DNA from: a virus
Lineage: Duplodnaviria > Heunggongvirae > Uroviricota > Caudoviricetes
Strand: one strand, 5' to 3'
Virus record (IMG/VR): IMGVR_UViG_2740892322_000008
Length of the DNA: 11,363 bases
Shown: piece by piece, positions 5,060 through 5,365 of the stretch
How the letters are laid out: each line of letters begins with the position of its first letter
Position numbering within the stretch: the first letter of the stretch is position 1
Position numbers and translations under genes: made by a program
Notes under the pieces: model-generated
Told to the model about the DNA's origin: nothing
What the model saw: the letters and a program-made list of their open reading frames with translations, nothing else
The model's database searches: none

Positions 5060-5280
5060 AAAAACTCCTGCCCGTAAGCTGGGCTGCTGAACATATAGAG
5101 ACTTCTGCGCGTATTCAGGCGGTGGATGGCCGCCGGTTGTCATAACTAAGCCGCCTCGTTGAAGCGACTAAGGTATGAAATGTTGAGTTAATTTCAGCTG
5201 GTCACACCGACGTTCACGCGTCCGTTTCACCCCTCGCACTCCCCGAAGCCTGCTGAAATTCAAACTGCGGATCTAAGCGG

Positions 5281-5332
5281 TCATCGCAACGGTGAATCAG
5301 GTAGTTGCCGTATCGTTGTGTTGTTGCGATGA
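5281..5332. repeat. Perfect 10-bp inverted repeat (TCATCGCAAC / GTTGCGATGA) with a 32-bp spacer, at or just downstream of the pL start site
   Basis: Plus 5281-5290 tcatcgcaac is the exact reverse complement of 5323-5332 gttgcgatga. Could form an RNA hairpin at the 5' end of the pL transcript or be a DNA binding site. Confidence 0.5.
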
Positions 5333-5336
5333 ACTT

Positions 5337-5365
5337 ATTTAAAACTATAGTTGTTTTATCGTCAA
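5337..5365 (-). promoter_or_regulatory. Putative pL promoter (leftward)
   Basis: On the minus strand: -35 TTGACG (plus 5360-5365), 17-nt spacer, -10 TTAAAT (plus 5337-5342). Same architecture and near-identical spacer sequence as the putative pR (gttgTTGAC-N-aaaacaac-[c/t]atagtt-TTAA). Overlapped by operator-like palindromes. Confidence 0.45.

Follow-up and report, generated by a model that had tools for sequence, protein, structure and literature searches.

The stretch of DNA analysed here, called the window throughout, is an 11,363-nt viral sequence (IMG/VR record IMGVR_UViG_2740892322_000008; Caudoviricetes) that represents the left half of a lambdoid, lambda/DLP12-like prophage. The element in question is the leader of its early-left operon, which lies on the minus strand between the pL promoter and kil. 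The first gene of the pL operon, kil (4853-5059, minus strand), codes for an FtsZ inhibitor of 68 aa, as identified by PHROG 294 and by RefSeq and phage annotations. It begins at ATG 5059, behind the Shine-Dalgarno sequence AGGAG (5069-5065), and has the 68-aa length of its counterparts in RefSeq, HK225 and 4A7; it does not begin at ATG 5143. The leader therefore measures 271 nt (5330-5060, minus strand), and not the roughly 200 nt given in the original prediction, a reading of this DNA made from its letters. The core of that prediction, a structured, non-coding leader that opens an early-left operon without N, is supported by our analysis: the leader RNA is real, conserved, partly structured and very widespread, but unannotated.

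The promoter (pL, 5337-5365, minus strand) consists of a -35 hexamer TTGACG (5365-5360), a 17-nt spacer and a -10 hexamer TTAAAT (5342-5337), with a predicted start at A5330, a layout that matches that of pR (TTGACT, 6393-6398; 17 nt; TAATCT, 6416-6421). The oL operator region (5343-5400, strand unspecified) contains repeats of the 8-mer AAAACAAC at a 12-bp spacing; seven copies of this 8-mer are present in the window, against 0.7 expected, and they are grouped at pL and pR, so that both promoters are embedded among them. Moreover, the homology of prophages with a different immunity region begins exactly at 5330/5329, the predicted +1, and a third immunity type, that of O157, joins the homology of the window at 5296. 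The pR-like layout, the operator 8-mers and the homology boundary at 5330/5329 together bear out the proposed pL with its -10 at 5337-5342, and it is from the promoter and the homology boundaries that we place the start of the transcript at about 5330.

The leader is present in 2225 of 5426 complete E. coli genomes (41%), mostly at 95-100% identity, and is never annotated. At the same level of identity (95-100%) it is found in at least 16 phage records, none of which has N, among them 4A7 (genus Bievrevirus), Lambda_4C10, 1W, 3W, D2, Perceval, Turner and the PhiR series. PhiR34_1, a complete phage of 44.6 kb whose structural genes are of the lambda type and whose nin region is of the DLP12 type, and for which MG1655 is named as the host, carries an identical leader and no N. 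The suggestion that N had been deleted and that the prophage is defective is therefore rejected as far as the leader is concerned, because complete recovered phages and 41% of the E. coli genomes carry it; the window's own prophage is nevertheless cut off after gene P, and relatives such as phi80 do have N in the equivalent slot. The absence of an N-like open reading frame (ORF) from the pL operon, also part of the original prediction, agrees with a comparison of the pL-operon ORFs with the PHROGs, in which no match to N-like or other antiterminator families was obtained. The design is not peculiar to E. coli: early-left operons that lack N and start with kil, but have other leaders, occur in prophages of Citrobacter, Kluyvera, Enterobacter and Silvania.

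The leader is made of two parts of different origin, module A (5330 to about 5181) and a kil-proximal part (5177-5060). Module A contains a perfect 10-bp inverted repeat (5281-5290 and 5323-5332, 32-nt spacer) and a 9-bp inverted repeat (5190-5198 and 5252-5260, 53-nt spacer). Both had been pointed out before, and both exceed chance: when 5144-5340 was shuffled 500 times with its dinucleotides preserved, 0.6% of the shuffles gave a repeat of 10 bp or more (p~0.006) and none gave two of 9 bp or longer. The outermost pair of each repeat is lost in most haplotypes, leaving 9 and 8 bp, respectively. The first repeat forms hairpin I (5281-5332, minus strand), with its 5' arm at 5332-5323, a 32-nt loop and its 3' arm at 5290-5281, which begins at the predicted +1 and still has 8-9 bp in every haplotype and in all three immunity types. 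The O157 type has a nearly unrelated 32-nt loop, yet 7 of the 9 arm pairs remain. The stem starts at, or a few nucleotides from, the predicted 5' end, and this placement is kept across five types of pL leader, with no compensatory changes. The 3' arm of hairpin I lies in a near-invariant block of 32 nt (UUCACCGUUGCGAUGACCGCUUAGAUCCGCAG; 5265-5296, minus strand) in which only singleton polymorphisms are seen.

The second repeat allows a long-range stem (5190-5260, minus strand) in which AAUUUCAGC (5260-5252) pairs with GCUGAAAUU (5198-5190) around a G-rich core. This stem retains 7-8 bp, with a disrupted outer pair in 36 of 49 haplotypes. A competing hairpin (5271-5261 with 5252-5242) is favoured over it by RNAalifold. 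The core itself (5191-5230, minus strand) is constrained and holds a small hairpin (GACG, 5222-5219, with CGUC, 5212-5209). A long-range pairing of the core with the ribosome-binding region of kil, suggested by RNAalifold, was discarded, as shuffled leaders do equally well. Behind the core lies a hypervariable linker (5170-5190, minus strand), pyrimidine-rich and poor in G, with a copy-number polymorphism of the motif (U)CAAC: the TCAAC pentamer (5170-5192) is present in two or three copies, and a 5-nt duplication is found in 4 haplotypes. Substitutions in the linker are nearly all between T and C; it evolves faster than synonymous sites while remaining pyrimidine-rich and G-poor.

Nucleotide diversity across 67 haplotypes reveals that the blocks of the leader are under purifying selection, block by block. 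For the whole leader it amounts to 0.030, as compared with 0.046-0.055 at the third codon positions of kil, gam and bet, and it is uneven along the leader: 0 in the 3' arm of hairpin I, 0.016 in the core (5230-5191), 0.098 in the linker (5190-5170), 0.015 in the hairpin at 5169-5149 and 0.006 in the segment 5148-5063, the latter value being below that of the first and second codon positions of gam. Compared with synonymous sites, several blocks have a diversity that is lower by a factor of 3 to more than 10.

The kil-proximal part, in contrast to module A, is shared beyond the E. coli family. Its approximately 120 nt are common to phi80 (87%), HK225 (95%), HK639, several phages of Enterobacter and Salmonella, and many prophages that carry put; the window's 5177-5118 aligns with 29 other versions. 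The order of its elements is CAUAC, then a hairpin with a variable stem and a fixed UUC..GAG top, then the invariant UUAUGACAACCGGCGGCCAUCCACCGCC. The hairpin, which we refer to as the module B hairpin (5141-5177, minus strand), pairs CAUA (5177-5174) with UAUG (5144-5141) and has an inner stem (5169-5161 with 5157-5149); it buries AUG 5143. Altogether, 32 distinct versions of module B were found, in phi80, HK225, HK639 and put-carrying prophages. Among 30 distinct versions, 6 of the 18 pairs predicted by RNAalifold show compensatory double changes and, within the window's family, all polymorphisms but one are wobble-compatible; this hairpin is the sole element in the interval with real support from covariation. 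It is followed by hairpin IV (5118-5134, minus strand; GGCGG-CCAUCCA-CCGCC), which lies within an invariant 26-mer, AUGACAACCGGCGGCCAUCCACCGCC, identical in nearly all of the 30 aligned versions, third codon positions included. The 26-mer translates as Met-Thr-Thr-Gly-Gly-His-Pro-Pro-Pro and folds into its own hairpin. The remainder, the translation-initiation leader of kil (5060-5117, minus strand), with the Shine-Dalgarno sequence at 5069-5065, is homologous to the leader that follows tL1 in phi80 and to its HK225 counterpart.

The cassette usually comes directly after an intrinsic terminator. In phi80 it stands directly behind N and the hairpin of tL1, ahead of the next gene; in HK225 it lies between a terminator and kil. 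Its coordinates in these phages are L221:1368-1428 (phi80), L005:2502-2563 (HK225) and L004:33115-33176 (HK639), and the annotation of HK639 labels part of it a terminator. It has no match in Rfam. A different element is found about 105 nt before kil in Citrobacter, Kluyvera and other enterobacterial prophages (L010, L013-L016, L223-L302). It consists of a 13-bp stem, CUUCGCGGUGG(U/C)G ... C(A/G)CCACCAGCGAAG, in which the U-A, U.G and C-G states amount to covariation, and of an inner hairpin that likewise varies compatibly.

Module A, for its part, was found only in the E. coli family, with no relative detected elsewhere. It occupies the slot between the pL start and the shared cassette, which holds nutL, N and tL1 in phi80, putL, two ORFs and terminators in HK639, and a phi80-like leader with three ORFs in HK225. 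Comparison of module A with the cassettes of phi80, HK225, HK639, HK022 and lambda revealed no similarity and no remnants of N, nut or put. The first 21 nt of the leader resemble the starts of the pL transcripts of phi80, HK225 and HK639 at 17 of 21 positions; the resemblance to phi80 and HK639 was considered as evidence and set aside, since it is not significant alone. Long leaders behind pL are usual (224 nt in lambda, with a small 5' hairpin; about 410 nt in phi80), and a hairpin that begins no more than 4 bases from the predicted 5' end of the pL transcript is seen in the leaders of the window, O157, L011 and phi80/HK639/HK225 types and in lambda; two leader types from other genera also have a hairpin near the first transcribed bases.

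The reading that we favour, with no better than even confidence, is that the leader is a cis-acting 5' untranslated region (UTR) that controls the stability of the pL mRNA and the expression of kil. It would act in cis and post-transcriptionally. The 5'-terminal stem-loop would shield the pL message from decay that depends on the 5' end, much as 5'-terminal stem-loops are said to stabilise E. coli mRNAs, that of ompA among them. Closer to kil, the structures of the cassette, possibly together with loading of Rho on unstructured C-rich stretches, would limit the synthesis of toxic Kil from leaky transcription of pL, and induction would lead to full expression. Rho, with NusG, reportedly silences the kil gene of the rac prophage. 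In the leader, two C-rich, G-poor patches of about 40 nt (5330-5291 and 5200-5161; C/G ratio of 2.8) flank the core, of which 42-50% is G, and these patches, each of them short, could load Rho. No antiterminator activity would be required of the leader.

Several observations weigh against this reading. The start of the transcript, on which the terminal position of hairpin I depends, is predicted. Covariation was sought for both repeats across homologous prophages, as had been proposed, and none was found, pairing being no better than in column shuffles; however, the family is only about 3% diverse, which accounts for the lack of covariation, so that this is absence of evidence and not evidence of absence. 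The fold energy of the leader is ordinary (z of -0.3 and -0.5), and pairing between the leader and the ribosome-binding region of kil is no better than in shuffled leaders. The C-rich stretches, at about 40 nt each, are short in comparison with a rut site of about 70-80 nt. Finally, the near-invariance of several blocks exceeds what a simple stability hairpin needs, and may therefore point to a specific binding partner.

The slot that module A occupies raises another scenario, in which it would be a processive antiterminator RNA, put-like in action and unrelated in sequence. As a structured nascent RNA it would attach to the elongating polymerase and take it past the terminators behind exo, for expression of xis and int from pL. 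We regard this as improbable. Module A does lie between the pL start and the shared post-tL1 cassette, as do nutL-N-tL1 in phi80 and putL in HK639, and its near-invariant blocks would suit such a role. Its structure begins at the predicted +1 (5330), which hairpin I spans, just as the structure of putL begins at +1 (PMC9378689). Like put in HK639, the leader is present in a single copy: searches of the window and of the complete PhiR34_1 genome with blastn and nhmmer returned only the leader itself, in line with the earlier remark that no comparable structure sits downstream of pR and cro. There is also something to be read through. An intrinsic terminator was expected before xis and int and is present within the pL operon (2329-2357, minus strand), with an 8-bp stem, UUUUUAUUGUU, at 2357-2339 and a T-run; PhiR34_1 has kept this terminator and has another behind exo.

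Nonetheless, the leader does not belong to the put family. From viral contigs we collected 31 distinct putL-like sequences, with clear covariation in stem II, and a covariance model was built from 23 sequences (22 putL-like sequences and HK022 putR). This model scores HK022 putL at 95.7 bits, HK639 putL at 90.9 and putR at 43.5; in the window, with filters off, the best match reaches 4.7 bits (E of 0.73) and lies on the wrong strand, and no match was obtained in other N-less loci. Direct alignment of the leader with HK022 putL and putR and with HK639 putL showed no convincing similarity. The proposed kinship with HK022 put thus fails as far as membership is concerned, how the leader acts being a separate question. 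Neither is it a nut site or a member of a known RNA family: boxA is absent from the pL leader (5060-5330, allowing up to 3 mismatches), the RfaH ops element is absent from the leader, and Rfam 15, searched with the whole window and, with permissive filters, with 5000-5450, gave no match at E<0.5, all hits being far below the gathering threshold.

Other points speak against an antiterminator as well. The missing covariation is one of them, and the replacement of most of the hairpin I loop in the O157 type is another. The genes kil, gam, bet and exo are reached from pL without any intrinsic terminator, none being present between pL and exo in the window; tL1 is absent from the leader together with N, and in PhiR34_1 the stretch from pR to Q is free of strong intrinsic terminators, so that a phage of this kind can manage without early antitermination. 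Taken together, these absences make the need for antitermination look small, and the genes beyond the terminators may have promoters of their own. It is only its position, in the slot of nutL-N-tL1 or putL, that would keep an antiterminator-like action of module A under consideration. A broader version of this scenario, in which module A would represent a promoter-proximal RNA of a new class, one that has no homology to N-nut or put, blocks Rho or modifies RNA polymerase, and functionally replaces them both, with the covarying cassette as its partner in the control of kil, is in our estimate similarly unlikely.

A perfect boxA (12/12 with the consensus CGCTCTTTAACA; 6692-6703, plus strand), the only perfect match in the window, is located 13 nt past the cro stop and is not followed by a convincing boxB. 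PhiR34_1 shares this boxA, which is absent from relatives of other immunity in which the gap between cro and the CII-like gene is 30 nt. It may provide the pR operon with an rrn-like protection from Rho that depends on Nus factors.

Module A could also be a mere junction, left by the ancestral loss of nutL-N-tL1 and devoid of a function of its own. In support of this, the phi80 transcript starts in a similar way and leads into the same cassette, with N and tL1 lying in between, the joint loss of N and tL1 would be tolerated, and the linker at 5190-5170 outpaces synonymous sites. A junction of this kind, however, explains neither the several blocks in which diversity falls 3 to more than 10 times below that of synonymous sites, nor the two significant inverted repeats, nor the preservation of module A in thousands of prophages and in recovered phages, and module A is unlike the cassettes of phi80, HK225, HK639, HK022 and lambda. 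We give this explanation an outside chance.

A candidate partner for the 5' end of the leader is the small RNA GcvB, whose sequence was confirmed in the gcvA-ygdI interval by Rfam (199 bits). The motif CAACAACACAAC (5315-5326, minus strand), located in the 5' arm and the loop of hairpin I, is perfectly complementary over all of its 12 nt to the R1 seed of GcvB (GUUGUGUUGUUG), and over 14 bp if one G.U pair is allowed. Of 300 shuffled leaders, just one reaches a complementarity of 12 nt, and the motif is invariant in 45 of 49 haplotypes. It also matches CACAACA, the published consensus of GcvB targets (PMC4104026). The leader could thus be a target or a sponge of GcvB, either through Hfq-aided repression or destabilisation of the pL message, or through titration of GcvB upon induction in the manner of AgvB, and Hfq-acting phage RNAs encoded in early-left operons do exist, as in the case of PreS of lambda (bioRxiv 10.1101/2024.10.31.621285). 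On the other hand, the match was noticed post hoc, with GcvB as one small RNA among many, the stem of hairpin I takes up half of the site, the O157-type leader lacks the motif, and the leaders of phi80 and HK639 also start A/C-rich without being complementary. Moreover, lysogens repress pL, and the window has no Rfam match to the AgvB family. As a role for the leader, we consider this a long shot. That the leader might itself be AgvB or PreS was dismissed, as these are encoded at different loci and no Rfam or blast match was found.

Could part of the leader be translated? According to the original prediction, the interval codes for no arginine-rich small protein. An arginine-rich ORF of 31 codons does exist (5168-5263, minus strand; TTG start, TAG stop at 5170-5168) in the frame of kil, and contains RLRGVRGVKRTRERRCDQLK; in many haplotypes, however, it is broken by indels, by the loss of a start or by changes at the stop. 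The stop codon is CAG in 47 of 60 haplotypes and a stop in the other 13, frameshifting indels occur in 6 haplotypes (a 5-nt insertion in 4 and a 1-nt insertion or deletion in 2), and GTG is lost in 1. This mini-ORF is probably not a gene. The variable sites within it (8 at third, 11 at first and 6 at second codon positions) show no significant positional bias.

The coding alternative holds that the leader encodes an arginine-rich peptide (5263/5230-5168) or that Kil is extended from GTG 5239/5230 or from ATG 5143. The frame of kil is indeed open up to 5272 apart from TAG 5170, itself so often CAG, a 128-aa "Kil" is annotated in PhiR47_2, 6 of the 12 common polymorphisms fall on third codon positions, and GGGGAG stands 8 nt ahead of GTG 5230; KRTRERR in the mini-ORF resembles the arginine-rich motif of lambda N. 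But the preference for third positions is not significant and is gone once singletons are included, and the segment 5148-5063 lacks even third-position variation, which speaks for a constraint on RNA and not on protein. Other genera do not conserve the peptide that would extend Kil from ATG 5143, and that of HK225 stops short of kil; a Pfam search for coding in the leader was negative; and no boxB-like partner for the peptide was found. Protein searches with the mini-ORF and with the extended Kil recovered only relatives of the Kil domain, the long versions of which are extensions by gene callers. With indels, stops and a lost start in the haplotypes, we hold translation of the leader to be quite improbable. 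Several phage records call a "Kil" of 96-128 aa with an ORF extended into the leader (in PhiR47_2, L001:2574-2960), and the PhiR34_1 record has an out-of-frame ORF of 77 aa in place of kil; these long and 77-aa calls look like gene-calling artefacts.

It is very improbable, lastly, that the repeats are DNA sites through which a regulator blocks or modulates pL, because, although the arms (GCAAC and GUUGC) resemble the operator half-site (ACAAC and GTTGT) and are placed at +1 to +50, they are kept behind two other immunity types with unrelated operators, are separated by a centre-to-centre distance of 42 bp that is unusual for a dimer site, and have wobble changes (U.G, G.U) that keep the pairing of the RNA but not the symmetry of the DNA.

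The remainder of the window carries further genes of the prophage. On the pL-operon side, int (1-1143), xis and several small ORFs, exo (3013-3693), bet (3690-4475) and gam (4481-4777) are all on the minus strand, as is the gene for the cI repressor (5655-6344), while cro (6449-6679), a CII-like gene, O and P are on the plus strand. A mechanically listed cI ORF of 251 codons begins within pR; the true start is probably ATG 6344, which gives 229 aa, as in related phages. Between cI and pL, at the place of rexAB in lambda, this prophage family has a variable slot for defence genes (window 5420-5650; L001:3261-4689; L007:1049-2650), occupied by the GevA/GevT toxin-antitoxin pair in PhiR47_2 and 4A7, by a gene of the SIR2 family in O157:H7 and by two small ORFs in SE11. 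In the window the slot is about 230 nt long and includes what appears to be the 3' end of gevA and the cI terminator (5533-5516). Within gene O, five palindromic iterons of 19 bp, TTTACCYGAATCAGGTAAA (7726-7842, plus strand), likely represent the origin of replication. An 11-mer of the iterons, TGAATCAGGTA, recurs in the loop of hairpin I (5293-5303, plus strand); it was not retained as a meaningful site in the leader, as it is a half-site only and is not conserved among haplotypes. Similarity to all related phages stops at 8992, shortly before the stop codon of gene P, and a long intimin/invasin-like ORF runs from 9252 to the end of the window, so that this copy of the prophage is truncated or rearranged on its right side.

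Lambda requires N for the expression of its delayed-early genes, and HK022 uses put RNA instead. A very common lambda/DLP12-like family has neither, yet includes complete phages that have been recovered and sequenced, and in the slot of its relatives' antitermination device it holds a conserved RNA segment of 150 nt beside a covarying cassette with no Rfam entry. Should the leader do no more than tune the stability of the mRNA and the toxicity of Kil, it would be an ordinary regulatory 5' UTR, yet a very widespread one that annotation pipelines have missed. If, on the other hand, it were to modify polymerase or Rho, it would be the third way in which lambdoid phages achieve early antitermination. 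In either case the system lends itself to direct tests, since the record of PhiR34_1 names MG1655 as the host.

The leader shares features with several known systems. Among prophage RNAs that act on host small RNAs, such as AgvB (Rfam RF02702, encoded 3' of pR'), or through Hfq, such as PreS of lambda (encoded between ea10 and ral), the points in common are the CA-rich complement of GcvB R1 and, for PreS, a place in an early-left operon; neither RNA is homologous to the leader, however, whose site lies inside a leader, not in a terminated small RNA, and is missing in one variant. The pL leaders of lambda and phi80, with nutL, N and tL1, are likewise long and untranslated, and that of phi80 resembles the present one at its start (17/21), but the leader of the window has no boxA, boxB, N ORF or tL1, and module A replaces the corresponding cassette while sharing nothing with it. 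HK022 putL and putR and HK639 putL are, as is the leader, structured RNAs found in N-less lambdoid phages, directly after pL in the case of putL. Put, which acts in cis to read through terminators without a phage protein and is blocked by mutations in the zinc-binding domain of the beta-prime subunit of RNA polymerase, starts at the first transcribed bases, as hairpin I is predicted to do, and the put of HK639 is single-copy, as is the leader, whereas HK022 has a related second copy in its pR operon. Beyond this, the leader differs from put in sequence and in structure, and module A, about double the length of put, lacks covariation and is not closely followed by a terminator. The ompA-type stem-loops that stabilise mRNAs from the 5' end resemble hairpin I in having the stem at or near the 5' end, which in the leader is a predicted one. 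Unlike them, hairpin I combines a 32-nt loop with an invariant 3' flank, and these features suggest that it may do more than protect the end of the message.

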